A DNA stretch of 64,000 bases from an uncultured Eubacteriales bacterium. GTDB taxonomy: Bacteria; Acidobacteriota; Aminicenantia; Aminicenantales; Aminicenantaceae. The DNA lies in contig CAZRGM010000009.1 of assembly GCA_964599635.1 (NCBI GenBank), positions 14,495 to 78,494 of the forward strand. The letters are read 5' to 3'. Positions 30,059 through 50,267 of the stretch are shown here, one piece after another. The notes under the pieces are model-generated. The model ran no database searches. It saw only the letters and a program-made list of their open reading frames with translations, and was not told the DNA's origin. Both the position numbers and the translations under genes were made by a program. The first letter of the stretch is position 1. The number at the start of each line of letters is the position of its first letter.

Positions 30059-31180
30059 TTATTGAGAGGTAGTGCTTTTTTGGGATGAGATTCCCGCCAT
30101 TGTTTCGAAAAAAGGGATCAATCGAGTGCTCTCAAATCTTATTCTTTCCCATTCCTTCACATCAAGTGAACAAAAGGCTTTAACAACTTCAGGATCAAAT
30201 TGGGTCCCTGAGTTTCTCCTGATCTCTTCTCGGGCATAATCAAAACTCTGTTCTTTTCTATAAGGCCGATAAGAAGTGATCGCATCGAGAGCATCAGCCA
30301 CCGCAAATATTCTTGCTTCCTGAGGAATCTCTTTTTCTCTTAAATGATTTTGATACCCATTCCCATCAAATCTTTCGTGATGATAAAGAATGATATTTCC
30401 TATTTCCTTAACCAGTTTTATCTCTTTTATAAGGCCGTATCCAAGGGAAGGATGAAGTTTTATTTTTTCCCATTCTGAAGGAGATAGAGAACTTGGTTTT
30501 TTAAGAATAGAATCTGGAATCGCTATCTTCCCTATATCATGGAGAAGAGCCCCTTTTTTGATATTGTTCAGAGCCTTTGGTTCCTTGATTCCTAAGATTT
30601 TGGCTAATACCTGACTGTATTTAGCCACTGTTCGGGAATGTCCAAAGGTTTCCACATCCCTTAAATCTAATGCGGTCATTAAGTTTTCTAGAGTAGAATC
30701 ATAAATCTCTTCAAGGTCCAGTGCTTTCTTTATATTGACCTGCTGCTGTTCCTTAAGTTTTATAATCCTCTTCTGGTACATTTGGTTGTCTCTTAAAAGA
30801 TCTCTTTTCAACAGTTCGTTTTTCAGAGCTAAAAACACCGCTGACTTGTTATCGGAATTGACAATATGACCTAAAATTCCTTTTTTATACAAAGAAACAG
30901 CGAGATCCGGCTCTATCTGATCTGAGAGAATCACAATCCCCAGTTCAGGATTGAATTTTTTTATACTCTGGATGGTGCCTATTTTATGCTTTTCATCTGA
31001 GTTTAACGGCAGAATAAGAACTGAAAAACTATTAGCACTCAATAATCTGTTTGACGCTTTTGAAAAATCTGAAGCTTCCTCAATCAAAAAAGAAAACTTG
31101 GATAAAAATTTGACGATTGAATTTCTCCGCTTTTTATTGGGATCAACAATAATCACTTTTCTTAAACCAGCCATCAACAA
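30059..31180 (-). CDS. HD-GYP-type phosphohydrolase with a degenerate receiver-like N-domain
   Basis: 373 aa. HD motif LLHDIGKIAIPD and HHERFDGNGYQ (the GYP position reads GYQ). The N-terminal REC-like fold lacks the usual phospho-acceptor Asp context (SVLILPLN). Confidence 0.75.
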   Translation of the reverse strand: MLMAGLRKVIIVDPNKKRRNSIVKFLSKFSFLIEEASDFSKASNRLLSANSFSVLILPLNSDEKHKIGTIQSIKKFNPELGIVILSDQIEPDLAVSLYKKGILGHIVNSDNKSAVFLALKNELLKRDLLRDNQMYQKRIIKLKEQQQVNIKKALDLEEIYDSTLENLMTALDLRDVETFGHSRTVAKYSQVLAKILGIKEPKALNNIKKGALLHDIGKIAIPDSILKKPSSLSPSEWEKIKLHPSLGYGLIKEIKLVKEIGNIILYHHERFDGNGYQNHLREKEIPQEARIFAVADALDAITSYRPYRKEQSFDYAREEIRRNSGTQFDPEVVKAFCSLDVKEWERIRFESTRLIPFFETMAGISSQKSTTSQ

Positions 31181-31235
31181 TCTCCTTTATGAGTCCGCTT
31201 GAAATTTTTATACACCATTTGAACTGAAAAGGCAA

Positions 31236-32084
31236 TCAATCTTCCAGTTTGGCTAGGAATATCCTCTTGATTCCAGCTAGATCCTTAATGATTTCAACAC
31301 GTTCCCATTTTTTGCTGAAAAAACTTTTGACTTTATTCTCCTGACCTTTTCCGATTTCAAAAAGCAGATATCCTTTGGGTTTCAAATATTCAGAAGCTTT
31401 CCGGACCAATTGATTTATAAATTCGGTTCCATCTCTTCCCGAAACAAGCGCCTCTTTAGGTTCATGATCTCTGATCTGGGGCTCAAGAGAAGACCACTCT
31501 CTTTGCGCAACATAAGGAGGATTTGAAACAATCAGTTCACATTTTTTTCTCAACACATTTTTTTTTAAAGCTCCAAACATATCCCCGACTATAAACCAAA
31601 CGTTTTGGATATGATGAAGAAAAGCATTCTTTTGAGCATAATAAACAGCTCTATCTGAAATGTCTAATCCCAATATTTTTGATCCAGGAAGTTCCCGGGC
31701 TAAAGACAAAGCAATGTTGCCGCATCCTGTTCCCATGTCCACAATAATCCCTTTGCTGCCAGAGTAAAGCTCAAGGACCTTTTCCACCAGAATTTCAGTC
31801 TCAGGTCTGGGAATCAAGACTCCTTCTCCCACTTTAAAGTCCATTGACCAAAATTCTTTCTCTCCTGTAATATAAGCTAGAGGCTTTCCTTTGACCCGCT
31901 TCTCCAGCATTCTGAAATATTCATTCTTTATTTCCTCAGAGACCTGAAAATTTGGTTCAGAAAAAAACCTTTCTTCAGAAACGCCTGCTGCTTTCAAAAG
32001 AATAACTTTGGCTTCTAAGGCTGGTTTGTCCAGTTCTTTTAAAAGAGAGATCCCCTTTTTGTGAAGCTCTCCAAGAGAACTCAT
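31236..32084 (-). CDS. prmC: Release-factor glutamine N5-methyltransferase
   Basis: 282 aa with DMGTGCGNIALSLA (SAM site) and IVSNPPY, located directly downstream of prfA. Confidence 0.9.
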   Translation of the reverse strand: MSSLGELHKKGISLLKELDKPALEAKVILLKAAGVSEERFFSEPNFQVSEEIKNEYFRMLEKRVKGKPLAYITGEKEFWSMDFKVGEGVLIPRPETEILVEKVLELYSGSKGIIVDMGTGCGNIALSLARELPGSKILGLDISDRAVYYAQKNAFLHHIQNVWFIVGDMFGALKKNVLRKKCELIVSNPPYVAQREWSSLEPQIRDHEPKEALVSGRDGTEFINQLVRKASEYLKPKGYLLFEIGKGQENKVKSFFSKKWERVEIIKDLAGIKRIFLAKLED

Positions 32085-32088
32085 TTGT

Positions 32089-33159
32089 TTAATTTGTCTC
32101 AGCCGTCATCTTCGCCTGAAAATGAAGGATCAATTTTTCTATGAACTCATCAAGGCTTCCATTCAGAACGCCTTCAATATCATAAACAGAAAGATTAAGC
32201 CTGTGGTCTGTCACCCGGGATTGAGGAAAATTATAAGTTCTTATTTTCTCACTGCGCTCTCCAGTCCCCACTTGAGACCTTCTATCCTTGGAGATCTTAT
32301 CTTTCTGTTCTCTTCTCGCTATATCCAGAAGCCGTGTTCGTAATATTTTTAGTGCCTTTTCTTTGTTTCTGTGCTGGGACTTCTCATCCTGGCAGGAAGC
32401 CACAAGCCCGGAAGGAATATGAGTCACCCTGATAGCGGTATAATTCCGGTTAACATTCTGCCCGCCTGGACCTGAGGCACCAAAAGCCTCGATTCTCATA
32501 TCTTTGGGATCAAGCTTCACATCGACATCATCTGCCTCAGGAAGGACCGCTACCGTTACTGTTGAGGTGTGAACCCTTCCGCTGGCTTCCGTTTCAGGGA
32601 CTCTCTGAACCCTATGCACCCCACTCTCATATTTTAACTGAGAATAAACTCGATCTCCCTTGATGCTGGCAATAATTTCTTTAAACCCATTTATGGTGGA
32701 TGAACTTGTGCTCAAAACTTCCAATTTCCATTTTTTTCTTTCAGCAAAACGGGAATACATCCGGAACAAATCCTGAGCAAAAAGAGAAGCCTCATCCCCC
32801 CCGGCTCCAGCCCTTATCTCTAAGAGAACATTTTTCTCATCGTTAGGATCTTTAGGTAGGAGTAAAACTCTGAGTTCCTCTTCCAGTTTTTTTTTCTTTT
32901 CTCTTAATTGATCAAGCTCTTCCCTGGCAAGCTCTTTTAAGTCTTCTTCTGAATCTGGATTGTTTAAGATCTCTTCAGAATCTTTAATCTCTTTCCTGGT
33001 TTTTTCATAATCCTGATATTTATGAACAATCGGCTCAATCTCAGCTCTTTCTTTAGAGGCTTTCTTTATTTTTTCAGGGTCAGAGATAAAATCTGGATCA
33101 GATAAAAAAGAGGTCAGCTGGTTATACCTCTCCCTTATGGATTCTAAATCTTGGAGCAT
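32089..33159 (-). CDS. prfA: Peptide chain release factor 1
   Basis: 356 aa with SGPGGQNVN (GGQ motif) and [26 protein letters not shown] (RF1-type block). Confidence 0.95.
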
Positions 33160-33162
33160 ATT

Positions 33163-33384
33163 TTATTTCTTATTTTTGTCCCGGGAAATCTTTCCATACT
33201 TCTTTTGGAACTTTTCAACTCTTCCCGCACTGTCCACAAATTTGTGTTTCCCGGTAAAAAAAGGATGGCACTGCGAACAAATTTCAACCCTTATTTCAGA
33301 CTTGGTGGAACGGGTTTTAAAAGTATTTCCGCACGCACAGGTGACCACACATTCTTTGTATTCTGGATGTATGTTCTTCTTCAT
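33163..33384 (-). CDS. rpmE: Ribosomal protein L31
   Basis: [46 protein letters not shown]... with the CxC...CxxC zinc ribbon. The tracked ORF is extended to 33411; the internal Met at 33384 fits the family N-terminus. Confidence 0.9.
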
Positions 33385-33413
33385 TTCTTCCTCTCTGTCT
33401 TTTGTAGGCAAAC

Positions 33414-33422
33414 ATTATAGCA
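33414..33422 (-). promoter_or_regulatory. Extended -10 promoter element upstream of rpmE
   Basis: The minus strand reads TGCTATAAT about 30 nt upstream of ATG 33384. No convincing -35. Confidence 0.3.
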
Positions 33423-33470
33423 AAAATAAAATAAGAATTCCAGAGCCCTGAAAGTTCTTTTCTTCCATAA

Positions 33471-33495
33471 TTTTTTTATGAATAGGTCAGGTTAA
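33471..33495 (-). repeat. Solo 25-mer identical to the left terminus of the family-2 element
   Basis: The minus strand reads TTAACCTGACCTATTCATAAAAAAA, the same as 41303-41327. A near-identical solo lies at 51438-51462. Confidence 0.7.
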
Positions 33496-33532
33496 TTAGA
33501 GGAACCGTTTTCTTTGCAGCCCTTCTGACTGA

Positions 33533-34387
33533 TTAAAGTCGTTCTCTTAGAGTCTCAACCGCACTTTTTGAAGGCAAAAAACCAAAATCATAAACAGGAA
33601 CTTTATGGACTGTATGGTCCAGTATATTTATGGCTGTCGGAATTGTCTCCGGCAGCCAGTTAAAGGTGCGGCTGTTGTGTATTAAAGAACGACTGGCTTG
33701 TTTCAAAGATAATCTTTTTATTTCGTTTTTAGATAAATGCCTGACTACACACACAGCAGCTAAAGGCCCTTTTCTTGGTTTGGGAGGACCTAAAGAACCA
33801 GGCCAGGGCGTAGCATGAACATAGATGTCCTCTTGACTTAATTGAAGATAAGGATTCTCATCGGTCAAATTTGTGTAACCCATCTCCACGGCTAATTTGC
33901 TGAAGGTTGTTTTCCCTGTGCCTGAATCACCCATTAAAAGGACATACTTATCTTCAATAACAACTAAGGCTCCGTGCATAAAGCAATATCTGTCTAAACT
34001 GGCCCTCCCCCAGAGTATGAGTTGTAGAGTTGGGACTCCATTAAAATTTATCCTGCCGCATCTCTGCTCGCTGATAGCCGCTTCATACGGAGACCAAAGC
34101 TTTATTTTGGTAAAATCACGATTGGTAAGAAATTGCCCTGTTCTGTAATGAAATAACATTTTTCCCTGGTATTTAGACATTTTGATAGAATCAACTTCCG
34201 GACTCTCTGAGCTTTTGACATGATCGGGAGACAAAGGATCAGATACAATTTCAATAACAGATTTTTTGGGGGAAGAAACAGGTGGATTCACCTGATAAGC
34301 CTCTAATTCCGGACTTAAGGGCATTTGAGTCCCTGAGGAAAATTTTAACTCAAAGATGATGCCGAGAATTTTAAGAAGATAGTCCAA
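33533..34387 (-). CDS. HPr kinase/phosphorylase C-terminal-domain-like P-loop protein (HprK-related kinase)
   Basis: 284 aa. The P-loop context VLLMGDSGTGKTTFSKLAVEMGYTNLTDENP parallels G-x-SG-x-GKS...L...G..LvaDD of the HprK C-domain. There is no HPr or PTS context. Confidence 0.6.
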   Translation of the reverse strand: MDYLLKILGIIFELKFSSGTQMPLSPELEAYQVNPPVSSPKKSVIEIVSDPLSPDHVKSSESPEVDSIKMSKYQGKMLFHYRTGQFLTNRDFTKIKLWSPYEAAISEQRCGRINFNGVPTLQLILWGRASLDRYCFMHGALVVIEDKYVLLMGDSGTGKTTFSKLAVEMGYTNLTDENPYLQLSQEDIYVHATPWPGSLGPPKPRKGPLAAVCVVRHLSKNEIKRLSLKQASRSLIHNSRTFNWLPETIPTAINILDHTVHKVPVYDFGFLPSKSAVETLRERL

Positions 34388-34499
34388 TAATTTTCAGACC
34401 TGACTTAATAATTAAAAAAAAAATTTAAATAAAGGGATTTTCTTATAAATAAAAAATTTGTGATTCTGGCTAAATAGAAATTATCTTCTCAGCAGCCTA

Positions 34500-34673
34500 T
34501 TAGCTGCAACTACCTGAGTTCCAACAGGCGTAAGCTTGGGTTTCTTTACAACCGCACGCACCTTGATTTTGAGGAGTACTATCGCTTCCGTAGCAAGCTG
34601 CCTGCATAACCTTATCAAATTTAAGGTCAACAACCTCTATTTTTGGATGGGCCCACTTCCTTTTTTCTTTCAC
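34500..34673 (-). CDS. Untracked 57-codon Cys-rich small ORF; candidate RiPP precursor peptide
   Basis: GTG start (34673-34671) overlaps the TGA stop of the SPASM gene as GTGA, with GGAG 7 nt upstream. Translation: MKEKRKWAHPKIEVVDLKFDKVMQAACYGSDSTPQNQGACGCKETQAYACWNSGSCS, stop TAA 34502-34500. Five Cys fall in the last 31 residues. It is below the 60-aa cut-off of the ORF track. Confidence 0.55.
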   Translation of the reverse strand: MKEKRKWAHPKIEVVDLKFDKVMQAACYGSDSTPQNQGACGCKETQAYACWNSGSCS

Positions 34674-35299
34674 GCTTTTCTCCTTAACGGTGATATTTTT
34701 GCATTAAAACCCTTAATTGTCAAGTTTTTTTTCATATCGTTTGTCCCATAAGCTTTAATCCGGGCTGAGGCTAACCGACACTTGTAAGGAACCGGTCCCG
34801 TAGGAGGACATCCTTCCAGAAGGGCAAAACCAACGCATTGACCGCAAATATTCGCGACCTCACACGTCTGGCAGGGACCTGGTTTCCAGGGTAGATTTTT
34901 AAGCATATCTGGAACAGCCCTATGCCATCCCTCTTGGATGCTTCCAGTCTTAAGATCATATTTTAAACTTTCAAGTAAAAGACATGGATGCAGATAACCG
35001 TAGGCATCAATATGAGACTCTCCATGTCCCACATTACATCGAAAAGGCGACTTTTTATTGGGGGGTAATGGAGTCCATTCTTTGAAAAGGTTTTTTAGCT
35101 GATCATTTCTGACTGGATCCTTTTTTCCCAATTCAACATATTCTTCAGGAGACAGCCTCAAAGACTGAGGACGATTCTTATACCCTTGGAAGCTCCCTAT
35201 TAGTTCAGCATCCCATCGGAACAAATCGCAGTATCTTAATGCCATATCCCGGACCTGCAAAAATTCATGAGCGTTTAAACGGCTGAACACTCCTTTCAT
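34670..35299 (-). CDS. SPASM-domain half of a radical SAM peptide maturase (separate ORF)
   Basis: 209 aa. It contains FRCNVGHGESHIDAYGYLHPC and CQTCEVANICGQCVG (the auxiliary Fe-S Cys motifs of SPASM/twitch domains). Its ATG overlaps the upstream ORF's stop as ATGA. Confidence 0.7.
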   Translation of the reverse strand: MKGVFSRLNAHEFLQVRDMALRYCDLFRWDAELIGSFQGYKNRPQSLRLSPEEYVELGKKDPVRNDQLKNLFKEWTPLPPNKKSPFRCNVGHGESHIDAYGYLHPCLLLESLKYDLKTGSIQEGWHRAVPDMLKNLPWKPGPCQTCEVANICGQCVGFALLEGCPPTGPVPYKCRLASARIKAYGTNDMKKNLTIKGFNAKISPLRRKA

Positions 35300-35796
35300 T
35301 CTAAAAGAATTTTTCTTTGGGCTAAAATATTAAGTGAATGCAGAACACGCTCTAACATTCCAGATCGGAGGGTCACTTTTCGGTATGTCTCCTCAGTTGA
35401 TCCGTATAAAGTGATGGAAACTTTCGCTGGCGTCCATTCCGAAAGAAAATCAGCTAATTCTTCATCGATAAGAGATCCGTTTGAAAAAAGAGTCACCAGG
35501 AATCCTTTCTTTTTAGCCGTGATCCAGAGTTTTCGGAAATTTTGATACAGCAAAGGCTCACCCCCCGTAAAGGTCAGATTGAGAACCCCTTCTTCTATGC
35601 ATTGATTTAAAATATCATCCCACTGCTCTAAACTAAGTTCATACTCTTTTTTGGGGCTTTTTTCAGGAATAGCGCAAAAGCAATGCGGACATTTAAAATT
35701 GCATCTCCGGGTTAGTTCAATGGTCAAGCTGTGCAGAGGTCGAGTTCTTTGACTGCTGATCTCTTCATAAAATTTTTCAGCTTTACAAAGTTCCAT
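35296..35796 (-). CDS. Radical SAM core half (CxxxCxxC) of a peptide maturase
   Basis: 166 aa with TRRCNFKCPHCFC (CX3CX2C) and TFTGGEPLL. It ends in the middle of the usual TIM-barrel fold. Confidence 0.75.
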   Translation of the reverse strand: MELCKAEKFYEEISSQRTRPLHSLTIELTRRCNFKCPHCFCAIPEKSPKKEYELSLEQWDDILNQCIEEGVLNLTFTGGEPLLYQNFRKLWITAKKKGFLVTLFSNGSLIDEELADFLSEWTPAKVSITLYGSTEETYRKVTLRSGMLERVLHSLNILAQRKILLE

Positions 35797-35807
35797 AAAA
35801 TTACCTT

Positions 35808-36161
35808 CTATGAGGAATAAATAAATTCCAGGGTGATAAGATCCTCCAGAAAATGATTCACATCTTTTTGAATGATCTCTGGATCCTCATTGAACTCTTC
35901 GGTCAACAAACTCAGCAAAGATTCTCTGGACCGGGGTGTTTCCAATTTTTTCCATATAAAGGCTCCTATCTCATTGAGTCTATATATTTTCTGGATCTCT
36001 AAACCCGTCTGATTTATGGGTATTAAGACTATCTCACCGCCTATCTGGCGAGTCACAACTTTATCATTTCTTTTAAAAATTTCTTGTTTTTTTATCATTT
36101 TTTTATGTCTAATCCAGTCTAAAAATTTATCTATTTTTATTGATAAAATATCATAAACCAA
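35808..36161 (-). CDS. PqqD-family protein (RiPP recognition element-like)
   Basis: 117 aa; an internal start MIKKQEIF... at about 36098 is possible. VVTRQIGGEIVLIP...IYRLNEIGAFIWKKLETPRSRESLLSLLTEEFNEDPEIIQKDVNHFLEDLITLEFI matches the PqqD beta-strand plus winged-helix pattern. Confidence 0.7.
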   Translation of the reverse strand: MVYDILSIKIDKFLDWIRHKKMIKKQEIFKRNDKVVTRQIGGEIVLIPINQTGLEIQKIYRLNEIGAFIWKKLETPRSRESLLSLLTEEFNEDPEIIQKDVNHFLEDLITLEFIYSS

Positions 36162-36199
36162 TAATATATTATTTCAACTGATTGAGCTAACAAATCACC

Positions 36200-37039
36200 T
36201 CAGATCCTTTCTGCTTTTTCCTTCATCTTCCTTCTAAAACAGTCCCAATCCACAGAAAAACTGAATTTTCCTTTAGCTTCCCTGACTTCCTTTTTGTAAC
36301 TTTTAGAATCAAAAAAATCTTCCAGTTTGCTGTCAACAGGCAGAAGCATTTCCTCAGCTTCCCATTTGTAAACCTTTCCCTCTCTGCCCCTCAAACACTC
36401 CAGATGAACAATCCACGCCAGCTCTTTAAATGTCATTTTTTTAAAAGTCTTTCTTATGACCTCGACCTCTGATTTTTTCTGAGGAGAAATAAAATTGAAA
36501 TATCTAGAAAAAAGTAGCGCATTATGAAAATAAGCCGGATAAGCAACGATTCCCTGATCTTTATTCAATTTAGCAAGATAGATGAATAAATCCACCACTT
36601 TTTTCCCCAAGCTCAATCCCGGATACTTCTGACCAGGAAGAGGGGTTCTCTTCCCGTTAAATTTTAACCGGGGATTCTGAAGGGTCAGCCATTCCAAAAC
36701 TAAAAATCGAGATTGATGCATCTTTAAAGGAAAATCTCTTTTGGTCTCGAAAATTCCCTCTCTAATTTTAAGATCAACAATGATATTTTCTGGATCTCTC
36801 TTTTTATAATATATGATCAATCTCTGTAAGGGAGGATATTGAGAGGAGTCCAGTTCATATTCAATGGGCCATAAACCTCTTTTTTTCGCCTCTCTATAAA
36901 AATTTCTTTTTCTTAAAACGACTTCAGCCTCTCTCATTGTGTATTTGCCCAGGAAAAGAGAAGTCCCTTTGGCCCCAGACATATCCTGAAAAATATCTCC
37001 TTTTTCAATAAGAGGAGTCGTCCTTGACTTCTTTTTCAT
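36200..37039 (-). CDS. Hypothetical protein (279 aa), no recognisable motif
   Basis: A long ORF in an operon-like position between rsmD and the PqqD gene. No family recognised by eye. Confidence 0.5.
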   Translation of the reverse strand: MKKKSRTTPLIEKGDIFQDMSGAKGTSLFLGKYTMREAEVVLRKRNFYREAKKRGLWPIEYELDSSQYPPLQRLIIYYKKRDPENIIVDLKIREGIFETKRDFPLKMHQSRFLVLEWLTLQNPRLKFNGKRTPLPGQKYPGLSLGKKVVDLFIYLAKLNKDQGIVAYPAYFHNALLFSRYFNFISPQKKSEVEVIRKTFKKMTFKELAWIVHLECLRGREGKVYKWEAEEMLLPVDSKLEDFFDSKSYKKEVREAKGKFSFSVDWDCFRRKMKEKAERI

Positions 37040-37100
37040 TTTCCCATTCCCTATTTTTCACGTCTCGCTTTTCTCGCTCTTTCTATTCACAATTTACTAT
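37040..37100. repeat. Intergenic low-complexity repeat (TTCTCGCTCTTTCTATTCAC / CGTCTCGCTTTTCTCGC type)
   Basis: TTCCCATTCCCTATTTTTCACGTCTCGCTTTTCTCGCTCTTTCTATTCACAATTTAC has near-copies at 49050-49086 and at 52700-52770 and 52855-52905. Confidence 0.6.
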
Positions 37101-37649
37101 TTATTCATATCCATAAAACTTCAGCACATCATCCGCCACTCTCATTTCTCTTTTTAATTCAAAATATTTAGATTCAAATCTGGTTTTATAATGATGTCTC
37201 AAAACAATGATCCCTCCCTGACTCAGCAAGTCTCTCTTATAAAGAACTTTTAAAGGGTCCCTCTCACCCACCATTAAATACGGAGGGTCCAGAAATATCA
37301 GGTCAAAGATTTTCTTTTCCTTTGACAGCATGATGACAGCCCGATTGAACTCTTTATGGACAACCCGGGTTGAATCTTCAGCATCACACCTCCTGATATT
37401 GGTCTTTATGGCTTTGATAGCCGGATAATAATCATCTACAAAGGTAACTTCCTTAGCTCCTCGGCTTAAAGCTTCAATTCCTAAGGACCCGGTTCCAGCA
37501 AAGCCATCCAGAACAGAAATATCTGGAATATCCAAATGCACTATATTAAATAACACCTCCTTGAGTTTATGAGGTATCGGCCTGACTTTTTCATCCCGCA
37601 CATGTCTAAGGCGCTTTCCTTTGTATTTTCCGCTTATAACCCGAATCAT
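37101..37649 (-). CDS. rsmD: 16S rRNA (guanine966-N2)-methyltransferase
   Basis: 182 aa with RVISGKYKGKRL, DGFAGTGSLGIEALSRGA and IFLDPPY. Confidence 0.85.
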   Translation of the reverse strand: MIRVISGKYKGKRLRHVRDEKVRPIPHKLKEVLFNIVHLDIPDISVLDGFAGTGSLGIEALSRGAKEVTFVDDYYPAIKAIKTNIRRCDAEDSTRVVHKEFNRAVIMLSKEKKIFDLIFLDPPYLMVGERDPLKVLYKRDLLSQGGIIVLRHHYKTRFESKYFELKREMRVADDVLKFYGYE

Positions 37650-37673
37650 TTTATCATGGTTTATTCATAAAAT

Positions 37674-37793
37674 CAGTCTGCAACCTCTTCTCACATCTCC
37701 TGATTATTTGTCTTTTCATTTATTGTCATTATATCAAGTTTATTCCTTTATTCTTATTTTGATTTCTTTTTCTTTGCAGACTGCAACCTCTTT
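37674..37793 (-). promoter_or_regulatory. Extended -10 promoter candidate flanked by two 17-nt direct repeats
   Basis: CAGTCTGCAACCTCTTC (37674-37690) and CAGACTGCAACCTCTTT (37777-37793) flank the minus-strand TGATATAAT (37736-37728). The upstream copy forms the palindrome TTGCAGtCTGCAA. Confidence 0.3.
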
Positions 37794-38382
37794 AATAATA
37801 AAATATGGCTTTCCCACTTTCCGTGCGGACATCTTTGATTCCATAGGGAAGTTCATACCAATCATTTAAAGTCGTATTTTCAGTTCCTTTGAATTTGGAT
37901 GCTAAATAAATCACAGTATCCAGCAGCACAGAGTCAACAGGTTCTTTATTCAGAAAAAGCTCTTGAATCACTAACCGGGCAGCGCCTTGTTTGACTTTAA
38001 GAATTCCATTAAAATAAAAGACCATTTTAGGGTTGAGCAGCAAAGGAAGATTTTGACCTTTGAATTGAAGCAGAACCTTTCCCTCAATTCTATTTTTATC
38101 AAATAACTTCAATTTCAGCTCTTTCATCACATCTTCCTCTTGTTCAATCCTAAAAGCCAGATAGGAGTTAAGCTCGCTTTCACTGACCTTGACTTCCCGT
38201 AACGGACCGGAATACTCGTTTTCCGCCTCTGATTGAACCTTTTCAATAAGCTCCAGAACTCTTAACACCTCATCAAGAGAATAATCGCTCTGAGCCAAGC
38301 TGATTTGTGGAACCATGAGGTTCAATATGAAACAGCAAACAGCCATTAAAGCATATAAGTGTCTAAAAAAATGGTTCATCAT
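37792..38382 (-). CDS. Hypothetical secreted protein (196 aa)
   Basis: N-terminal signal-like segment LYALMAVCCFILNLMVPQISLAQS. No family recognised. Confidence 0.5.
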   Translation of the reverse strand: MMNHFFRHLYALMAVCCFILNLMVPQISLAQSDYSLDEVLRVLELIEKVQSEAENEYSGPLREVKVSESELNSYLAFRIEQEEDVMKELKLKLFDKNRIEGKVLLQFKGQNLPLLLNPKMVFYFNGILKVKQGAARLVIQELFLNKEPVDSVLLDTVIYLASKFKGTENTTLNDWYELPYGIKDVRTESGKAIFYY

Positions 38383-38420
38383 TCACTATCCCCTATTGAC
38401 CATTCACAATTCACCATTCT
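38383..38420. repeat. Heptamer array filling the whole intergenic spacer
   Basis: The minus-strand sense reads GAGAATG GTGAATT GTGAATG GTCAATA GGGGATA GTGAATG and runs directly into ATG 38382. Confidence 0.7.
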
Positions 38421-39242
38421 CTAATAATGAGTCAGAGTACCATCTTTTTTTGCTTTCTTCAATGCCAAACGGAACAAGGTGATACTTAAGGGGAAAAGAA
38501 TCACGGCAAATATGAGTAAAGCCATGATATCTGGAAAAATCTCAGAAAAGGATGCTGAAGTAATCATGCTTTTCCTCAGCCCTTCTAAAGAATAAGTAAT
38601 AGGAAGAAGATAAGATATCCATTTGATCCATGGAGGAAGGACCTGGATAGGAAAAAACACCCCACCCAGCAAGCCGGAAACACTTCCATAGATCCACGAA
38701 AAAGGATTCCCTTTTTTATAAACCAGAATAAAGCAGGCTGATAATATTCCGATACTTAAAAAGCATAATGCGGTTAAAATAAAAGTTATGATAGCACCCG
38801 GCCAGTTAATCTTTTCTATCTGCATTCCAAAAACCCATACAGCCAGAATGATTTGAAACACGGTGGAAACCACAGAAAAGAGAAAATAATACAAAGAAGA
38901 TCCAAATAAAATCACAGGGAGACTGGTTCTGGAGACCAAAATCGCCTCCAAAGTCCCGGTAACCTGAGCCTGCCGAATTATGGCTGGAAGATGCTCCTGG
39001 AACACAGCCAGAAGGCCTGAAAAGGCAATCCCTATGATCACAAAAGAAAAATAATCCCCTCCATAAGCATCCAGAACAGAAGAACTGTTCGGTGATATTA
39101 ATTTCGAAATAAAGAAAAAGGTGGCAGAAGAGAGGAAAATTCCGATAAAAGAGGCAATAAATGAAAATTTATAGCTGGCCTCCTCTAAAAAATCCCGCTT
39201 TAAAAAGGCATAAAGCTTCTCTATGAGCGCCACTGAAATCAT
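38421..39242 (-). CDS. ABC-2 type transporter permease
   Basis: 273 aa with about 6 predicted TM helices. Its start overlaps the stop of the ATPase gene by 4 nt. Confidence 0.7.
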   Translation of the reverse strand: MISVALIEKLYAFLKRDFLEEASYKFSFIASFIGIFLSSATFFFISKLISPNSSSVLDAYGGDYFSFVIIGIAFSGLLAVFQEHLPAIIRQAQVTGTLEAILVSRTSLPVILFGSSLYYFLFSVVSTVFQIILAVWVFGMQIEKINWPGAIITFILTALCFLSIGILSACFILVYKKGNPFSWIYGSVSGLLGGVFFPIQVLPPWIKWISYLLPITYSLEGLRKSMITSASFSEIFPDIMALLIFAVILFPLSITLFRLALKKAKKDGTLTHY

Positions 39243-40063
39243 CTCCCAAAACTTTCATGGTCTGCTGCAGCCTTTTTGACCGCTTTTTCATAGACCTGGT
39301 GTAGAGAATTTTTCCCTTGTTCTGTCAAGCTGGATACCGATCCTTGAGCCATGACCTGTCCCTCTACAATAATGGCTAAAGTGTGTGCAAAGTCCTGGGC
39401 TTCTTTCAGGTCATGAGTGGCCCAGAATACCGTCTTGCCTTGATTTTCAACCATCTCTTTTCTCAAAAACTTTCTTATGTTTTGGGCAGCTAGTGGATCC
39501 AAACTTCTCGTGGGTTCGTCAACAAATAAAATCTCTGGGTCTGTGAGGAGGGCTCTTGCAATGGCCATCATTTGCCTCATACCTGTGGAATAAGTATTGA
39601 ACCTTTGCTCAGCAGCTTTTTTCATTCCCACAAGATCTAAAACTTCCTGAATAATCTTCCTTCTTTTTGATGAAGGTATACTATTCAAAGCCGCAAAAAA
39701 ATCCAGATTCTGCAGACCCGTCAGCCTCCAATAAAAACTTCTCTCCTCACTTAAGGCAAAACCAATGTGTTTTTTGACCTCATCTGTTTCATGCTCCAAG
39801 TCACAGCCTTTGATGAAAACTTTTCCCTCATCAGGCAGCACAAGGGTTGAAAGAATCTTAATGAGAGTGGTCTTCCCGGCTCCATTAGGACCCATTAAAC
39901 AAAAGCACTGACCCGATTCCACTTCTAAATCCACCCCTCTTAAAGCTGTGGTCCATTTCCTTGCTAAAGGATGGAACAAAAGCTCTCTGTAACCTTTGAC
40001 CACAGGATAGACTTTTTTGAGAGATCTTACTTCTACAGCCTTCATCTTCTTATCCTGTCTCAA
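39239..40063 (-). CDS. ABC transporter ATP-binding protein
   Basis: Walker A GPNGAGKTT, signature-like YSTGMRQMMAIA, and Walker B ILFVDEPTRSLD. The start is probably MKAVEVRSL at 40045. Confidence 0.85.
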   Translation of the reverse strand: MRQDKKMKAVEVRSLKKVYPVVKGYRELLFHPLARKWTTALRGVDLEVESGQCFCLMGPNGAGKTTLIKILSTLVLPDEGKVFIKGCDLEHETDEVKKHIGFALSEERSFYWRLTGLQNLDFFAALNSIPSSKRRKIIQEVLDLVGMKKAAEQRFNTYSTGMRQMMAIARALLTDPEILFVDEPTRSLDPLAAQNIRKFLRKEMVENQGKTVFWATHDLKEAQDFAHTLAIIVEGQVMAQGSVSSLTEQGKNSLHQVYEKAVKKAAADHESFGR

Positions 40064-41225
40064 TCAATCTTCTAAAAATAAGATATAGGGGTCTCCAGAA
40101 ACGCCATAGATAATGAAGCCCCATTTTATACGAATGGGGAGAAATCCCATAATAAAAAGAGACCCAGGAACGGGGGGGAAAGAAAAAATTATAGAGTGCT
40201 TGAATAAATGGGCCTATTCTTCTCCTGTTCAGCACTGAAAAAAAAGTAGGAGCATGCATGGGAAACAGAAGCTTCTGTTGTCTGGACTTCACCAAATCTT
40301 GAGGCCAAAAAAAATGAAGCAGTCTTAGGTTCAGAGAAGAAATAGAAAATCGGCTTATGATATTCTCTGAAACTGTATTGGGCCAAAATTCATTCACCAG
40401 ATGCAGCCCATAGTAAACAGACGCTTCTATTTTCTCTCTCCTGCATATATCCAAGACCTTATTCCAGTTCAATTTATAGATAGAAATCATTTCTGCTATG
40501 TCTGTAAACCAATCCAACCGAGAATAAGAATGCTGCTGGGAATGAAGACAAAGAAGGCAAAGCTCATATTCAGGCGAAAGAATCTGAGCCGGAGAACCCT
40601 CTATGTCAATTTTCTGTATGCTTCTCCAAAGATCCTCCCTCATTGAAAACGGCATATGAAGACCCGGAAAATTATAATGAAGTTCCAGCTCAAGCTTTCC
40701 TTTTCTGTAGACAGGGCGGTAGGTCCAAAATATTTTCTCCCGCTCACTCAATTCACGACTGATATGCTCACCGGCTGCCTGAACAAAACCCAATCCTCGG
40801 AGTAATTCTTGAAATTCAGTTCTTTGGGAAGAATCAAGAAAAAGATCAACATCAATAAAAAATCTCAACCCAATATCTTTATAAAGCGTTTTTGCCAGCC
40901 TGGGCCCCTTCACTAACGCCACCCTCATTCCTGAATTCTCGATAGAATCCAGAACTGGTTTCAGCGCGTTGAGAAGATATAGATTCCGACCAAAATTTGT
41001 TATGTATATTCGATTGAGCTGACTGACAATCTCATCCGGAACTTTGTCTTCATACACCTTCAGATTTCGGTATAAAAGAGGGGAAACATTTTCTTTCTGA
41101 GCTCTTTTCAGAAGCTCATGCCAGTCCAAATCTTTATTTAATATTTGCTTGAATTCAGACTTTTGACTTGGATTCAGTTTGATCCTTGAGCCTAAAATAA
41201 GAAGCTTGACTTCAGGAGATAACAT
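40050..41225 (-). CDS. Uncharacterised nucleotidyltransferase family protein (NTP_transf_5-like)
   Basis: 391 aa. KENVSPLLYRNLK, FIDVDLFLD and HSQQHSY... fit the PF14907-type pattern as I remember it. Confidence 0.55.
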   Translation of the reverse strand: MLSPEVKLLILGSRIKLNPSQKSEFKQILNKDLDWHELLKRAQKENVSPLLYRNLKVYEDKVPDEIVSQLNRIYITNFGRNLYLLNALKPVLDSIENSGMRVALVKGPRLAKTLYKDIGLRFFIDVDLFLDSSQRTEFQELLRGLGFVQAAGEHISRELSEREKIFWTYRPVYRKGKLELELHYNFPGLHMPFSMREDLWRSIQKIDIEGSPAQILSPEYELCLLCLHSQQHSYSRLDWFTDIAEMISIYKLNWNKVLDICRREKIEASVYYGLHLVNEFWPNTVSENIISRFSISSLNLRLLHFFWPQDLVKSRQQKLLFPMHAPTFFSVLNRRRIGPFIQALYNFFFPPRSWVSFYYGISPHSYKMGLHYLWRFWRPLYLIFRRLIETG

Positions 41226-41302
41226 TCGTGCTCAAATTAGTAAAATAATGAATAATGAATGGTAAATTGTGAATGGATTTCTAGCGTTTTAGAACGTTTA
41301 AT

Positions 41303-41562
41303 TTAACCTGACCTATTCATAAAAAAATGGCGATGTTTTCATAATTCATTTATTCTCAACGATATACAGGACTTTTTCAAGAACAATTTCTTGAACATTT
41401 TTTCTGTTTGTATTTTAATTTTAATCGCCATTTTTTTACCTTAAAGGCGAGCCGATCTCACGGCATCTTCTTCGTACCAGGGCATTCGTAGTGAAGTACC
41501 ACGACTTCATGCCCCGTGCCTCGCATCTGCAGCAATCTCGGCTCGTGAATAATCCAGGTTTA
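41303..41562 (+). repeat. Family-2 foldback element, copy B (~260 nt)
   Basis: Collinear with copy A, with the same AAAAAAATGGCGAT / ATCGCCATTTTTTT pair and the same GGCGAGCCGATCT...CCAGGTT right arm. ORF 41491-41709 is in a different frame from the copy-A ORF, so the element is non-coding. Confidence 0.7.
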
Positions 41563-41579
41563 AATCAAATGATTAGATC

Positions 41580-42398
41580 TTATTTCCTTATAGGTGACAC
41601 ATCATCTGGTTCATCATCAGGCTCATTGAGAGTGACCCCCCCTATGACTAAAGCAAGTCCCACAGGAATCAAAAATATAGGGACAAGTCCTTTTCTTTTC
41701 ACCAGATAAACCAAGTCTCCGGGAGCCACATCTTCTTCCATATAGATAGCGACAATCTGTCCTTCTGTGGCTTTCTTAATGGGCTCGTCATTCAGGGTCA
41801 GAATTTTAACATATTGATAGAAATCAGTTTCAGGTTCATCCTCGTCAGGTGTTAGGATATGTATCTCATCATCTTTCCACAGCTCTATTTCTTCATCTTC
41901 TTCCTCATAGGTCATAATCTCTACGGTGGCTATCTGGGTATTTGGTTCATAAGAAATAACCAGGCCTACTAATTTTTCTCCCTCGTCGTTTCTAGCCTCA
42001 AACTTCTGTCCTGCCGCCTCTTGGCTTCCCTTGGTAAAAGTCTTCAGGGTTACAGATATTTTTCCTGTCTTTCCTGATCGGATCCCCACCAAATTTTCTG
42101 CGTTGTACCCACCATTCTCAGATTCAACCCCCAAGATATAAAGGCCTTTCTCTATTTTCTCGACTTTAAACACTCCATGATCGTCAGTTCCGGTGCTTTG
42201 ATAAACGTCACCCGATGAAACATTCCTGAGAGTGACTAAGGCTCCTTTAACAGGAGTTGTCCCGTCCTCACTAAAAATGAATCCCGTTAGGCTTCCTGTT
42301 TCTGGGCTCCCCGCTTTGGCTATATTGGGAAGGTACAAAACAACAAGAGATAAACACAATAGGATTGATGTTAATTTTTTATAGGCGCCTCTATTCAT
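41580..42398 (-). CDS. Secreted carboxypeptidase-regulatory-like (CarboxypepD_reg) domain protein with a C-terminal TM segment
   Basis: 272 aa with a signal peptide. GSLTGFIFSEDGTTPVKGALVTLRNVSSGDVYQSTGTDDHGVFKVEKIEKGLYILGVE is a typical CarboxypepD_reg fold signature. The C-terminal LVPIFLIPVGLALVIGGVTL is followed by an acidic tail. Confidence 0.6.
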   Translation of the reverse strand: MNRGAYKKLTSILLCLSLVVLYLPNIAKAGSPETGSLTGFIFSEDGTTPVKGALVTLRNVSSGDVYQSTGTDDHGVFKVEKIEKGLYILGVESENGGYNAENLVGIRSGKTGKISVTLKTFTKGSQEAAGQKFEARNDEGEKLVGLVISYEPNTQIATVEIMTYEEEDEEIELWKDDEIHILTPDEDEPETDFYQYVKILTLNDEPIKKATEGQIVAIYMEEDVAPGDLVYLVKRKGLVPIFLIPVGLALVIGGVTLNEPDDEPDDVSPIRK

Positions 42399-42420
42399 AT
42401 TTCCTCCTTAAGGTATATTT

Positions 42421-42449
42421 AATATAGACATAACAAATGTATTTGTCAA
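42421..42449 (-). promoter_or_regulatory. Strong sigma70-like promoter for gene 41580-42398
   Basis: The minus strand reads TTGACA (42449-42444), a 17-nt spacer, TATATT (42426-42421). AGGAGG follows 4 nt before ATG 42398. Confidence 0.5.
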
Positions 42450-42522
42450 TAAATTTTTTACATATTACCCATATATTCTCTATGACTTATAAGCCTACTA
42501 TGCCCATTAATCAGCCACCGTT

Positions 42523-44199
42523 TTATCCATTGTCTTTAACTATCCTCACAATTTCAATTTCTCTATTAATGGGTTTCAGCTCTAGAATATTTTCCCCTCT
42601 TTTGGTCATAAGTTCCAATCCTGAAATGCGGCCCTCATGGGCAACCTGTTCATCAATGACTCTCCCATTCAAAAAAACAGCCAACAAAGGACTCACCGAA
42701 TCTTTTTTCAGTTCAATATTGATAAAAATAGGTGACTCTTCAGCAAATAAAAGAGGAACTCCGTAGGTCTCCCCTTTTTTTATCTTTTTATGGCCAAATG
42801 ACATTATCTCCGGCATCAAAACTTTAGAAAGCCTCTCATCAATCTCTTTAATTTTTTCGATATCATTAAGACGCTCATAATTCTTATGCATTCTCAACAG
42901 GATCTCCACATTTTGAGGATCTCTATCCAGTGCTTTTCTATAAAAATCACCCGCATCATAAACAAAGTCTACAGCCTGATAAGAATCACCCACTATTTGC
43001 AAAAGTTTTACCAAATCGTCATGAGATCCAAAATCTCCGGAAAATAGAAGGCTCTCTACTTTGTCTCTTTGCTGAATGACTTCTCTGTATCGATGCTGTT
43101 TGAAATCAAATACGATACTGAAATAAAGGCGGGAAAAACTCTCGCTTCCTCCGGGTATGACTTCAAGTAAATTTCGGCCCCTCAAAAATCCTTCTAACTC
43201 CTCGATCTCCGCATCTTCATTTTCCATCTCTAAGTAAGTTTTGAGATGATTCTCCGCACCCTTCAATCCTTCAGACCTCTGAATTTCTAATTTTATCAGT
43301 CCCAAAAGAACTGATTTTTTGGTTTCGATAAGCTCTTTCTCCTCTATTAATTTTTCTCCGGTTAGGGATTGATAAAATTTTATATGGTTGAGCTGTCTCA
43401 AGCTGGATGAAAGATGACTTAAAGCATTTTTCATATGATAAATTCTGGCTTCATCCTGACCTTTATGGTAAAGATCTCTGGCTCTTTCATACTCCATGCT
43501 TTCAGCTTTTGAAAGCTTATCCAGCCTTTCACTCAGGTTGAGAGATCTTCCTCCTAAAAAATCAGCATACAGGCGAAATGCTTCAGCTTCTCGAGGAAGG
43601 ATCTGATTCATAACGGAATAGTCTTCAACATAAACCGCCCACACATGCATCACATCCATTAATCCCTGTCTTCCTTTGGCATCAATAACATCTTTCATCA
43701 TCTTGACAACATACTTTTTATCTTCTCCCTTTAATTCTTCCCAATTCTGCATCATTATCTTTCCTATCTCAAAATAAGCCTCTTCATCAAATGTGGTCAA
43801 AAGGGCCGCCTTTTTATACTGGTCATAATAATCGATCTCAACAGGTTGAAAATAATTCATATAAGAAAGTGCCTGGGCAAGGCGAAAATGAGCCGCATAG
43901 GACCCTGGATTTAAGCGGACTGCCTGAATAAAATTCTGTATCGATGTATTCAGATTCTCGTTTCCTTGGGGCCCATTTCCAGCATCCTTCACTCCTCTTT
44001 CGAAATAAGTCTTTCCCAGTTCATAATACACTTTATCATTGAAAGGATTTAACTGCTGAGACTTCTTGAGAATAAAGATCCTTTTTTCTGAATCAAGAGT
44101 CCTTTCCCCTTTATAATAGAGATGCACACTCCAGTACATATAGAAATTGATCGCCATCAGAAGCAAAATCCCAACGATTAAAGCCGTTTTTTTTTGCAT
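42523..44199 (-). CDS. Membrane-anchored TPR-repeat protein
   Basis: 558 aa with an N-terminal TM helix and repeated TPR-like 34-mers (YYELGKTYFERG, AHFRLAQALSYMNY, GDFYRKALDRDPQN). Confidence 0.6.
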   Translation of the reverse strand: MQKKTALIVGILLLMAINFYMYWSVHLYYKGERTLDSEKRIFILKKSQQLNPFNDKVYYELGKTYFERGVKDAGNGPQGNENLNTSIQNFIQAVRLNPGSYAAHFRLAQALSYMNYFQPVEIDYYDQYKKAALLTTFDEEAYFEIGKIMMQNWEELKGEDKKYVVKMMKDVIDAKGRQGLMDVMHVWAVYVEDYSVMNQILPREAEAFRLYADFLGGRSLNLSERLDKLSKAESMEYERARDLYHKGQDEARIYHMKNALSHLSSSLRQLNHIKFYQSLTGEKLIEEKELIETKKSVLLGLIKLEIQRSEGLKGAENHLKTYLEMENEDAEIEELEGFLRGRNLLEVIPGGSESFSRLYFSIVFDFKQHRYREVIQQRDKVESLLFSGDFGSHDDLVKLLQIVGDSYQAVDFVYDAGDFYRKALDRDPQNVEILLRMHKNYERLNDIEKIKEIDERLSKVLMPEIMSFGHKKIKKGETYGVPLLFAEESPIFINIELKKDSVSPLLAVFLNGRVIDEQVAHEGRISGLELMTKRGENILELKPINREIEIVRIVKDNG

Positions 44200-44243
44200 A
44201 ACTTTTTCTTATTTTAAAATATCTGCAATCCTTTTCTCTTCAG

Positions 44244-44314
44244 CTCTTTAGAGGAGAGCGAAGCCCGAACGGGAGAGAGACTCCTCGATGGGGAATCGAA
44301 CGGGTGACGAATCC
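44244..44314. repeat. Family-1 internal segment (fragment)
   Basis: CTCTTTAGAGGAGAGCGAAGCCCGAACGGGAGAGAGACTCCTCGATGGGGAATCGAACGGGTGACGAATCC differs at 5 of 72 positions from 19119-19190. Confidence 0.65.
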
Positions 44315-44380
44315 TCTGTTTTTTCCCCTTTAAATTTTTTGTGGAGCGCAAACCATGCCTATATTTCATAAAAATCATCT

Positions 44381-46668: not shown

Positions 46669-46724
46669 AACTCACGATTCTCCATTTTCTATCTTCCATT
46701 CACAATTCCCCATCCCCTATTCAC
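46669..46724. repeat. Heptamer array (8 units) filling the spacer and covering the upstream gene's stop codon
   Basis: The plus strand reads AACTCAC GATTCTC CATTTTC TATCTTC CATTCAC AATTCCC CATCCCC TATTCAC. Confidence 0.7.
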
Positions 46725-48991: not shown

Positions 48992-49014
48992 TTTTTTTAC
49001 TCTTTTTTTAATTT

Positions 49015-49086: not shown

Positions 49087-49090
49087 TTTA

Positions 49091-49933: not shown

Positions 49934-49956
49934 CCCGCTATCCTTATATCTAATCA

Positions 49957-50152: not shown

Positions 50153-50267
50153 AAATTTCATGTCTATACAACTTCTCTTATTTTTTCATTATCCCCGATT
50201 ATATTAATGATTTATTATAATACATTAGAGAAATTAAAGAAACCTATCTCTTCCCCCTTTACTGGTT

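Follow-up and report, generated by a model that had tools for sequence, protein, structure and literature searches.

HprK-like kinases phosphorylate serine residues in the precursors of paeninodin, pseudomycoidin and the linear polyphosphorylated peptides (LPPs) (PMC6993621; Popov et al., Nat Commun 2026, PMC13381572). For LPP formation, a recognition element (RRE) for peptides made on the ribosome and modified after translation (RiPPs), an HprK-like kinase, a nucleoside triphosphate (NTP) transferase, a signal peptidase I (SpI)-like peptidase and an exporter suffice; the kinase polyphosphorylates a single serine, Ser3 of the core, and the clusters are often found within capsule loci (PMC13381572). 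The LPP precursors carry the motif [Y/W]xxPx[L/V/I/F/A], which is bound by discrete RREs of the lasso/LPP type, and LPPs as well as paeninodins were stated to be restricted to Bacillota, with radical S-adenosylmethionine (SAM) enzymes unmentioned (PMC13381572). PsmK phosphorylates the C-terminal serine of a lasso peptide, and PsmN, an uncharacterised nucleotidyltransferase, puts a hexose on the phosphate (Zyubko et al., PMC6993621). Here, a short open reading frame (ORF) was analyzed in a 64,000-nt stretch of DNA, in the following called the window, from an uncultured Eubacteriales bacterium placed in the Aminicenantaceae by GTDB (assembly GCA_964599635.1, contig CAZRGM010000009.1, positions 14,495 to 78,494 of the forward strand); related loci are designated by L numbers. 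Comparative analysis indicates that this ORF quite probably encodes the precursor of a large uncharacterised RiPP family, for which we propose a pathway of a PqqD protein, a radical-SAM/SPASM maturase and an HPr-kinase-like protein.

The 57-codon frame of the minus strand from 34673 to 34500 translates as MKEKRKWAHPKIEVVDLKFDKVMQAACYGSDSTPQNQGACGCKETQAYACWNSGSCS, with a GTG start and with letters identical to those quoted in the original prediction, an earlier reading of the letters of the window. The pattern W-x-x-P-x-I-x-V-V-D-L noticed there is present, with W7, P10 and I12, and all five cysteines counted in the core exist (C27, C40, C42, C50 and C56), but just C27, C40 and C50 are invariant in the relatives, C42 and C56 being private to the window. 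The ORF had also been described as unannotated; public gene callers had in fact already called it, although merely under the label 'hypothetical protein' (P0393 in IMG, P0004 in NCBI). A protein search retrieved three homologues with 77-81% identity, two from JGI metagenomes and one from an Aminicenantes metagenome-assembled genome (MAG), all of which keep the frame and sit directly downstream of a maturase gene. A broken frame or missing codon periodicity in related genomes had been named beforehand as the finding that would speak against the ORF; the DNA alignment showed the frame retained in four lineages, with 9, 9 and 22 variable sites at codon positions 1, 2 and 3 and a dN/dS of 0.09-0.11 for divergent pairs. 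Judged by this pattern, the ORF is a genuine conserved gene under purifying selection. Between the window and its nearest relative, L005, the leader differs by 1 change, while 9 of 28 core positions are changed at a core dN/dS of 0.78, as compared to 0.07 for the C-terminus of the maturase. A conserved leader followed by a fast-changing core, as seen in this alignment, is the usual pattern of a RiPP precursor. Five substitutions are private to the window peptide, the other three sequences agreeing at each of these positions (Y31D, N32S, Y42C, H46Q and S49A), and the private core changes of L005 are as numerous.

With regard to the start site, the GTG at 34673..34671 shares two bases with the TGA at 34672..34670 of the ORF 34670..35299, forming GTGA as originally described, while the spacer between GGAG and GTG, given there as seven nucleotides, is actually 6 nt long (AAAAGC). 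GTG and Shine-Dalgarno sequence are kept in L003 and L005, and L001 has an ATG with its own GGAGG. The proposed translational coupling to the maturase gene is borne out in part: the GTGA overlap exists in the window and in L005, and starts overlapping or abutting the maturase stop were also found in the distant loci L087, L088 and L090, whereas L001 and L003 have a gap of 16-18 nt between maturase stop and peptide start. The overlap thus appears compatible with translational coupling, though it is not universal. A sigma-70-like site was observed on the minus strand at 34695..34723 (TTGACA-17 nt-AAAAAT, with TG before the second hexamer and 10/12 matches), inside the maturase gene at its 3' end, the start of the peptide being 22 nt further downstream. 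As an internal promoter it could serve the precursor; sigma-70-like sites in the region are no commoner than in shuffled sequence. Terminators and hairpins downstream of the peptide ORF were likewise no more numerous than in shuffled sequence (fold z-score 0.26), an Rfam scan of 31000..43000 gave no match, and no second copy of the precursor was found within the window.

Similar peptides adjoining homologous maturases, the search for which the original prediction had recommended, are found in many phyla. An alignment of maturase homologues (A2) was scanned over species-representative genomes and gave 80 loci with maturases 25-41% identical, at which peptides were detected with a profile of four peptides and then by motif search. 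In about 45-50 loci, the maturase is followed at once by a small ORF; these loci belong to Aminicenantes, Desulfobacterota, Nitrospirota, Omnitrophota, Acidobacteriota, Verrucomicrobiota, Myxococcota and others, and several loci initially scored as peptide-negative hold a divergent copy. The peptide is absent from more distant maturase homologues without the cassette. Common features are the leader motif [Y/W]xxPx[LIV], a first cysteine 20 residues after Y/W and three conserved cysteines, and the consensus reads K-x-P-Y-E-K-P-x-L-x-x-I-x-L-x-x-E-E-V-L-x-x-G-C-K ... C ... C ... G-S, with the leader also written PYEKPrLrxIeLxAEEVLavGCK. Among 50 unique peptides the distance from Y/W to the first cysteine is exactly 20 in 42, exactly three cysteines occur in 37, and 42 end in serine, 37 of the 50 in Gly-Ser. 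Searching the family alignment against a collection of 5.8 billion proteins returned 862 clusters (90% identity) at E <= 0.01, which lack a Pfam domain throughout and are all unnamed or 'hypothetical'; the top 120 members have exactly three cysteines in 119, a Y-to-C1 distance of 20 in 118 and a terminal serine in 118 cases. An exhaustive profile search of 1.84 billion representatives extended the family to 1,287 clusters (50% identity) at E <= 0.001. One retrieved protein, P0373 (1,823 aa, seven matches to the leader profile), was rejected as a chance low-complexity match, since it is a repetitive protein with PYKSPEIEGISL repeats and unlike the family. Pfam and NCBIfam assigned no family to eleven family peptides, i.e., the window peptide and ten others, apart from one chance match with E = 0.26.

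In a full-length alignment with the family, W7 of the window peptide corresponds to Y, P10 to P and C27, C40 and C50 to the three cysteines, while G54-S55 aligns with the family Gly-Ser and is followed by two extra residues; P10 and the three cysteines are invariant in an alignment of 103 sequences. When 1,415 stop-to-stop segments of the window were searched with an independent profile hidden Markov model (HMM) trained on 120 distant members of the family and on none from the window's clade, the peptide ORF was the sole significant match (E = 2.6e-5) and aligned from end to end. These matches place the window peptide, as a divergent 'W-type' sequence, in a family that counts at least 1,287 clusters. 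W-type peptides accompany maturases that are at least 40% identical to that of L001 (window, L001, L003, L005 and L087 to L091) and are characterized by WxxP, the spacing of 20, three cysteines, a Ser/Thr patch 2-4 residues after the first cysteine and a variable C-terminus. Of these loci, L087 is entered under a species name, Desulfopila inferna, and not as a MAG. At L088 (9050-9820), two tandem W-type precursor ORFs with 3 and 2 cysteines follow the maturase, of which the gene caller found one.

Directly upstream of the family peptides is the PqqD and radical-SAM/SPASM pair, and an HPr-kinase-like gene follows downstream of them. PqqD was found in 61 of the 85 loci L001-L085, the kinase-like gene in 55 and a PF14907 nucleotidyltransferase in 18. 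Of 40 loci that bear a peptide and have enough flank, 39 contain the kinase-like gene, as compared to 11 of 28 without a regex-detected peptide (Fisher p = 7e-8, not corrected for phylogeny). Taken together, the position downstream of the maturase in about 45-50 loci, the conserved leader with its variable core, the three cysteines and the co-occurrence with the kinase-like gene support, on comparative grounds, the original proposal that the PqqD and radical-SAM/SPASM proteins encoded next to the peptide act on it as their substrate. The kinase-like gene, the PF14907 gene and the ABC-2 exporter (Table 1) had been overlooked in that proposal and point to phosphorylation as a second modification.

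Table 1. Features of the putative precursor locus, in positions of the window and listed in the direction of transcription of the cassette, with the distant candidate peptidase gene last
Feature	Position	Strand	Remarks
PF14907 (NTP_transf_5) nucleotidyltransferase	40050..41225	minus	Pfam E = 9.5e-46
ABC-2 exporter, two genes	38421..40063	minus	ATPase 39239..40063, permease 38421..39242; syntenic in L001
196-aa protein with hydrophobic N-terminus	37792..38382	minus	
RsmD-like methyltransferase (Cons_hypoth95)	37101..37649	minus	
279-aa conserved protein	36200..37039	minus	Directly upstream of PqqD; window's clade only; cassette membership uncertain
Discrete PqqD-family RRE	35808..36161	minus	Peptide chaperone; Pfam PqqD E = 2e-16
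Maturase 5' half	35296..35796	minus	166 aa; CX3CX2C radical-SAM core; Pfam Radical_SAM E = 4e-23
Maturase 3' half	34670..35299	minus	209 aa; seven SPASM Cys; TGA overlaps peptide GTG
Shine-Dalgarno sequence AAGGAG	34680..34685	minus	6 nt before GTG; conserved in L003/L004 and L005
Putative precursor peptide gene	34500..34673	minus	57 aa; GTG start; stop codon 34500..34502
Predicted peptide leader	34596..34673	minus	Residues 1-26; motif W7-A-H-P10-K-I12
Predicted peptide core	34503..34595	minus	Residues 27-57; conserved C27/C40/C50, invariant S30, G54-S55
HPr-kinase-like (ScmC-like) P-loop protein	33533..34324	minus	Predicted peptide Ser kinase; Pfam Hpr_kinase_C E = 9e-4
Archaeal-type signal-peptidase-I-like (S24/S26) protein	63161..63679	minus	172 aa; candidate leader peptidase

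The HPr-kinase-like protein probably starts at M22 of a 284-aa ORF reaching 34387, and it carries the Walker A motif GDSGTGKTT, LTDEN (LSDDR in the family) and ATPWPG at a dN/dS of 0.12, the family consensus being G-x-S-G-a-G-K-s-T ... L-s-D-D-R ... G-T-P-W-x-G. A profile of 39 kinase-like sequences matched L. casei HPrK/P (1JB1) in the PDB with E = 1.6e-7 over a region spanning Walker A and the Asp-Asp-Arg metal site. Matches of the kinase-like proteins to the model PF27840 (ScmC) were clear in L087, L088, L089 and L091 and weak in the window's clade. The best NCBIfam match of the PqqD protein was lasso_PqqD_Bac, a PqqD model for lasso peptides of Bacillota, below its cutoff.

The maturase was previously taken for a SPASM gene of its own next to the peptide; the comparison with the closest public relatives L001 and L002 (Candidatus Aminicenantes MAGs) and L003, in which an intact protein of about 367 aa is encoded, shows instead that this ORF is the 3' half of one frameshifted radical-SAM/SPASM gene. 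The loss of a single nucleotide between 35298 and 35299 divides the gene within the radical-SAM barrel after residue 166, one G being missing at the junction (GAA-TGAAAGGAG in comparison with GAAGTTAAAGGAG), so that the two halves meet in an ATGA stop/start overlap. The Logan contig L086 (SRR2989655, 7,862 bp) is 100% identical to window positions 33469..41330, deletion included, and the half-proteins are recorded from 6 contigs in NCBI, JGI and Logan, which argues that the lesion is not a one-off assembly error. A further contig, L092 (JGI 3300001335, equivalent to window 33832..35475), is 100% identical except in two places: its junction is intact (GAAGTGAAAGG), and it lacks window positions 34986..35106, a 121-nt deletion removing the first SPASM cysteines. 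Nearly identical genomes therefore carry two different lesions of one maturase gene. The low dN/dS of the halves (0.12-0.17 each as compared to L001; 0.07 for the C-terminus as compared to L005) implies that the damage is recent or that the split gene still works. In L005, the HPr-kinase-like gene is frameshifted (L005:601-1451; residues 1-77 in frame 1 and 75-284 in frame 3 by tblastn); this contig is short and the frameshift could be an assembly error. The maturase lesions, the L005 kinase frameshift and the five private peptide changes suggest, as far as such comparisons go, a loss of the pathway in this lineage, and that the peptide is no longer matured in this genome has to be considered a serious possibility, somewhat short of an even one.

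None of the seven SPASM cysteines (C254, C272, C309, C312, C318, C321 and C340) varies within the family. In a profile search of the PDB, SkfB, a thioether synthase, came out as the closest solved relative of the maturase (E = 2.4e-28), followed by PqqE, SuiB and CteB, the match to CteB spanning the full length. Similarity to the sactipeptide and ranthipeptide systems (SkfB, AlbA, CteB, PapB) extends to a SPASM maturase with a full 7-Cys auxiliary-cluster motif, a cysteine-containing core, predicted RRE-dependent leader recognition and an exporter. The maturase differs in staying far under every named NCBIfam cutoff for these groups (SkfB 70 bits as compared to 300, PapB 66 to 340, StsB 60 to 625), and here the RRE is a separate protein rather than an N-terminal domain of the maturase, and genes for a kinase, a nucleotidyltransferase and a signal-peptidase-like protein are added.

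The remainder of the cassette resembles the LPP clusters, with which it shares a discrete PqqD-type RRE and a [Y/W]xxPx leader, an HprK-like kinase, an NTP transferase, an exporter, a candidate leader peptidase that resembles signal peptidase I of the archaeal type and a frequent polysaccharide or capsule neighbourhood. In contrast to the LPP clusters, the precursor gene is overlapped or abutted by a gene for a radical-SAM/SPASM enzyme and three cysteines are conserved in the core, while the LPP leader consensus YxxPxVLxHQxIxFETxxS is absent apart from [Y/W]xxPx[LIV]. Moreover, LPPs are reportedly confined to Bacillota, whereas the family described here is spread over Aminicenantes, Desulfobacterota, Nitrospirota, Omnitrophota, Acidobacteriota and other phyla. 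The PF14907 nucleotidyltransferase is, likened by description, the same kind of enzyme as PsmN and LppN; a PDB sequence search with the window protein gave no match, and the supplements of the LPP paper contained none of the Pfam accessions looked for (PMC13381572). With paeninodin and pseudomycoidin (PadeK, PsmK, PsmN) the cassette has in common the HprK-like kinase, the nucleotidyltransferase, a WxxP leader and a discrete RRE; their phosphorylation site is the C-terminal serine, and the main family here ends in serine as well. Unlike in lasso peptide clusters, neither an Asn-synthetase-like cyclase nor a B2 transglutaminase-like peptidase was detected in Pfam and NCBIfam scans and in the gene tables of related loci, a radical-SAM enzyme stands in the place of the cyclase, and the window's clade lacks a conserved C-terminal serine.

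Among curated models, those of the SynChlorMet (SCM) cassette (ScmC, ScmD, ScmE and ScmF; TIGR04248, TIGR04250, TIGR04251, PF27840) are the nearest relatives, sharing an ScmC-family protein, a PqqD relative and a PqqE-like radical-SAM/SPASM protein. The cassette differs from SCM in having one maturase instead of two, and the scores remain far from the cutoffs (ScmD 33 bits as compared to 100, ScmE 79 to 400, ScmF 65 to 400). To our knowledge, the precursor of the SCM cassette has never been identified; the searched literature yielded no paper on the SynChlorMet/SCM cassette and none joining HprK with radical SAM, and the RRE-Finder paper and the radical-SAM compendium paper make no mention of a kinase or a nucleotidyltransferase. 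The system of PqqA, PqqD and PqqE resembles the cassette in its small peptide with a W-x-x-P-type opening, its PqqD chaperone and its PqqE-like SPASM enzyme, and differs in that here pqqB, pqqC and pqqF are missing, the core varies and genes for an exporter and a peptidase are included. The resemblance to PqqA-type leaders pointed out in the original prediction hence turned out to be superficial: no PqqA model matched, NCBIfam and Pfam gave 0 families for the window peptide (E <= 0.1) and 0 for the L001 homologue (E <= 10), the pqqB/C context is missing and E44-x3-Y48 is not conserved. The ten cluster proteins had no match to PqqB or PqqC and scored 67 bits against the PqqE model (cutoff 381) and 24 against the PqqD model (cutoff 46). 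The run E44-T-Q-A-Y48 (34530..34544) was considered as a counterpart of the Glu-x3-Tyr of PqqA and rejected as coincidence, with E44 replaced by Val in L005 and the motif absent in L087-L091.

Following these comparisons, we propose that the PqqD domain binds the leader motif W7-x-x-P10-x-I12 and presents the peptide to the enzymes, and that the radical-SAM/SPASM enzyme, with two auxiliary Fe-S clusters, would cross-link the core, most likely through thioethers formed by the cysteines C27, C40 and C50, in the manner of sactipeptides and ranthipeptides. The HPr-kinase-like protein would phosphorylate a serine, which in the Y-type family would probably be that of the near-invariant C-terminal Gly-Ser, mirroring the paeninodin/pseudomycoidin site. 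In the window's clade, where the C-terminus varies (CS, TQ, HQ, HE), a better candidate is S30, which is invariant, stands three residues behind C27 and is nearer to the LPP situation with Ser3 of the core. The PF14907 nucleotidyltransferase may add a sugar to the phosphate, the signal-peptidase-I-like protease would remove the leader and the ABC-2 pump would export the product. As the recent 1-nt deletion splits the maturase, cross-linking in this organism may be lost or may need reassembly of the halves.

Several observations weigh against this pathway. The kinase-like protein of the window has DEN where the family has DDR, and its similarity to HPrK is confined to the catalytic core; the C-terminal serine that suggests a phosphorylation site is not kept in the window's clade (HQ, TQ and HE in the relatives); and the signal-peptidase-like gene of the window is not adjacent, lying about 22 kb off, and scores below the family cutoff. 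The maturase is below every NCBIfam family cutoff (best MftC, 88 bits as compared to 265), and PqqE, its second-closest solved relative, forms C-C and not C-S bonds. In addition, the frameshift found on 6 public contigs and the different lesion in L092 make maturation in this strain doubtful. The last point leads to the alternative that the peptide is a genuine family member but a relic here, no longer cross-linked because the maturase is inactivated, and either useless or at most phosphorylated, which we regard as a substantial possibility without favouring it. In its favour are the deletion inside the radical-SAM barrel that is identical in L086 and the 6 public contigs, the second, independent lesion in L092, the L005 kinase frameshift and the five private substitutions at otherwise invariant positions. 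On the other hand, the dN/dS of the maturase halves requires that any loss of function be very recent, the ATGA overlap could permit coupled translation of the second half, and the peptide ORF, the PqqD, kinase-like and nucleotidyltransferase genes and the exporter are all intact in the window. The core changes may moreover reflect diversification and not decay, given that L005 has equally many, and L092 and L005 are short metagenome contigs whose lesions could be assembly errors.

Other explanations concern the nature of the product. If the peptide served only the kinase, nucleotidyltransferase and peptidase module, as in LPPs, the radical-SAM enzyme would act elsewhere, for instance on a polysaccharide sugar or a cofactor; the LPP module does suffice by itself (PMC13381572) and all seven W-type loci examined lie beside polysaccharide genes. 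Nevertheless, the overlap or abutment of the peptide and maturase genes, the three cysteines kept in essentially all family members and the absence of a peptide at distant maturase homologues without the cassette make this quite improbable. Pairs of a PqqD protein and a SPASM-type radical-SAM enzyme are, in addition, peptide-modifying systems. Very improbable, in our view, is a small redox cofactor derived from the peptide as from PqqA or MftA: a discrete PqqD and a PqqE-like enzyme, MftC and PqqE among the best NCBIfam and PDB matches and the E44-x3-Y48 of the window core would agree with it, but no PqqA or MftA model matched, the Glu is Val in L005 and E-x3-Y is absent from other W-type peptides, genes like PqqB/C/F or MftD/E/F are missing from the cluster, the core varies between close relatives, and the exporter and the signal-peptidase-like protease indicate a secreted product. 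An ORF that is short, begins with GTG, has no Pfam or NCBIfam match and is overlapped by two further small ORFs, on both strands, might be suspected to be no gene but a frame open by chance in the 3' flanking sequence of the maturase gene. Conservation of frame, length and Shine-Dalgarno sequence, the excess of third-position changes, more than 1,000 homologues at the same genomic position in many phyla and sources, and the sole significant match in the window to a profile built without its clade render this explanation practically negligible.

A roughly 20-kb polysaccharide/capsule-type locus (42523..62832) lies directly upstream of the cassette and comprises a TPR protein, a Wzy_C polymerase/ligase, a CpsB-like PHP phosphatase and a 756-aa Wzz/tyrosine-kinase-like protein as well as a Wza-like exporter, an initiating sugar transferase, several glycosyltransferases, methyltransferases and a flippase. 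Polysaccharide genes were found within 8 kb at 7 of 7 W-type loci examined; at Y-type loci no enrichment was demonstrable in an insensitive phmmer test with the exopolysaccharide (EPS) proteins of the window (13 of 50 as compared to 5 of 24 controls). The polysaccharide locus separates the signal-peptidase-like gene from the cassette, and the window ends 320 nt past this gene. Its product matched an HMM of the cassette peptidases with E = 3e-30; a signal-peptidase-like gene of about 160 codons comes next after the kinase-like gene in 32 of 50 loci, the best model being TIGR02228 for signal peptidase I of the archaeal type (cutoff 51.85 bits), against which the homologues of L008 and L012 score 55 bits and that of the window 42.5. 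It is conceivable, though unlikely, that the product is a cross-linked phosphopeptide which the PF14907 protein joins via the Ser-phosphate to a sugar or glycan of the neighbouring locus, giving a peptide-phosphoglycan conjugate with a part in capsule, biofilm or cell-surface biology. Such a conjugate would explain why the kinase, transferase and signal-peptidase module is repeatedly found next to polysaccharide loci, here as well as in the LPP/paeninodin clusters of Bacillota, why the peptidase gene stands at the far end of the polysaccharide locus, and why the product of the module is still missing.

In four Omnitrophota loci (L015:3892-5970, L019:3845-6067, L021:8132-9739 and L033:4836-6464), the signal-peptidase-like and PF14907 genes are apparently fused in ORFs of 536-741 aa, as judged from ORF lengths and the co-clustering of both families; a fusion would suggest that both proteins act together. 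A gingipain-type Peptidase_C25 ORF was observed in 32 related loci, mostly of the Y-type, and none in the window (L016, L017, L020, L025, L030, L037, L040, L044, L046, L076, L079, L082 and others, at about positions 1-5900 of each). These ORFs often exceed 1,800 aa, gave Pfam C25 matches of E = 4.5e-80 and 5.2e-78 in two cases, with SdrD_B and CarboxypepD_reg repeats in addition in L017, and end just upstream of PqqD on the same strand in 14 of the 16 C-termini listed, those with the C25-type GDPA motif. To regard the near-invariant Lys of the Y-type G-C-K as a C25-type cleavage site would be pure speculation. The three genes between the exporter and PqqD, encoding the 279-aa, RsmD-like and 196-aa proteins, are syntenic with L001 at a dN/dS of 0.09-0.16 (0.09 for the 279-aa protein) and missing from all other related loci; the 279-aa protein had no match in Pfam, NCBIfam or the PDB, and its single-sequence AlphaFold2 (AF2) model was unusable (pLDDT 36.8). 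On the other side, the housekeeping genes rpmE, prfA and prmC come after the HPr-kinase-like gene.

In essence, the locus joins a radical-SAM RiPP to the phosphorylation module of LPPs and paeninodins, which is not a categorically new principle. If the proposed pathway is correct, radical-SAM/SPASM cross-linking would be united with an HprK-kinase, nucleotidyltransferase and signal-peptidase module, the two being separate in the searched literature, and a precursor would be supplied for the ScmC/PqqD/radical-SAM type of cassette, to which none is assigned in Pfam or NCBIfam. The Y/W-to-Cys spacing of 20, the three cysteines and the terminal Gly-Ser are rigid features that can be tested, and the occurrence in Desulfopila inferna makes experiments feasible in a named species. 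For the organism represented by the window, the two independent maturase lesions would be a snapshot of pathway loss in progress. For the family, the finding would mean a widespread group of RiPPs with at least 1,287 sequence clusters in many mostly uncultured anaerobic phyla, and would extend the phosphorylation module well beyond Bacillota.

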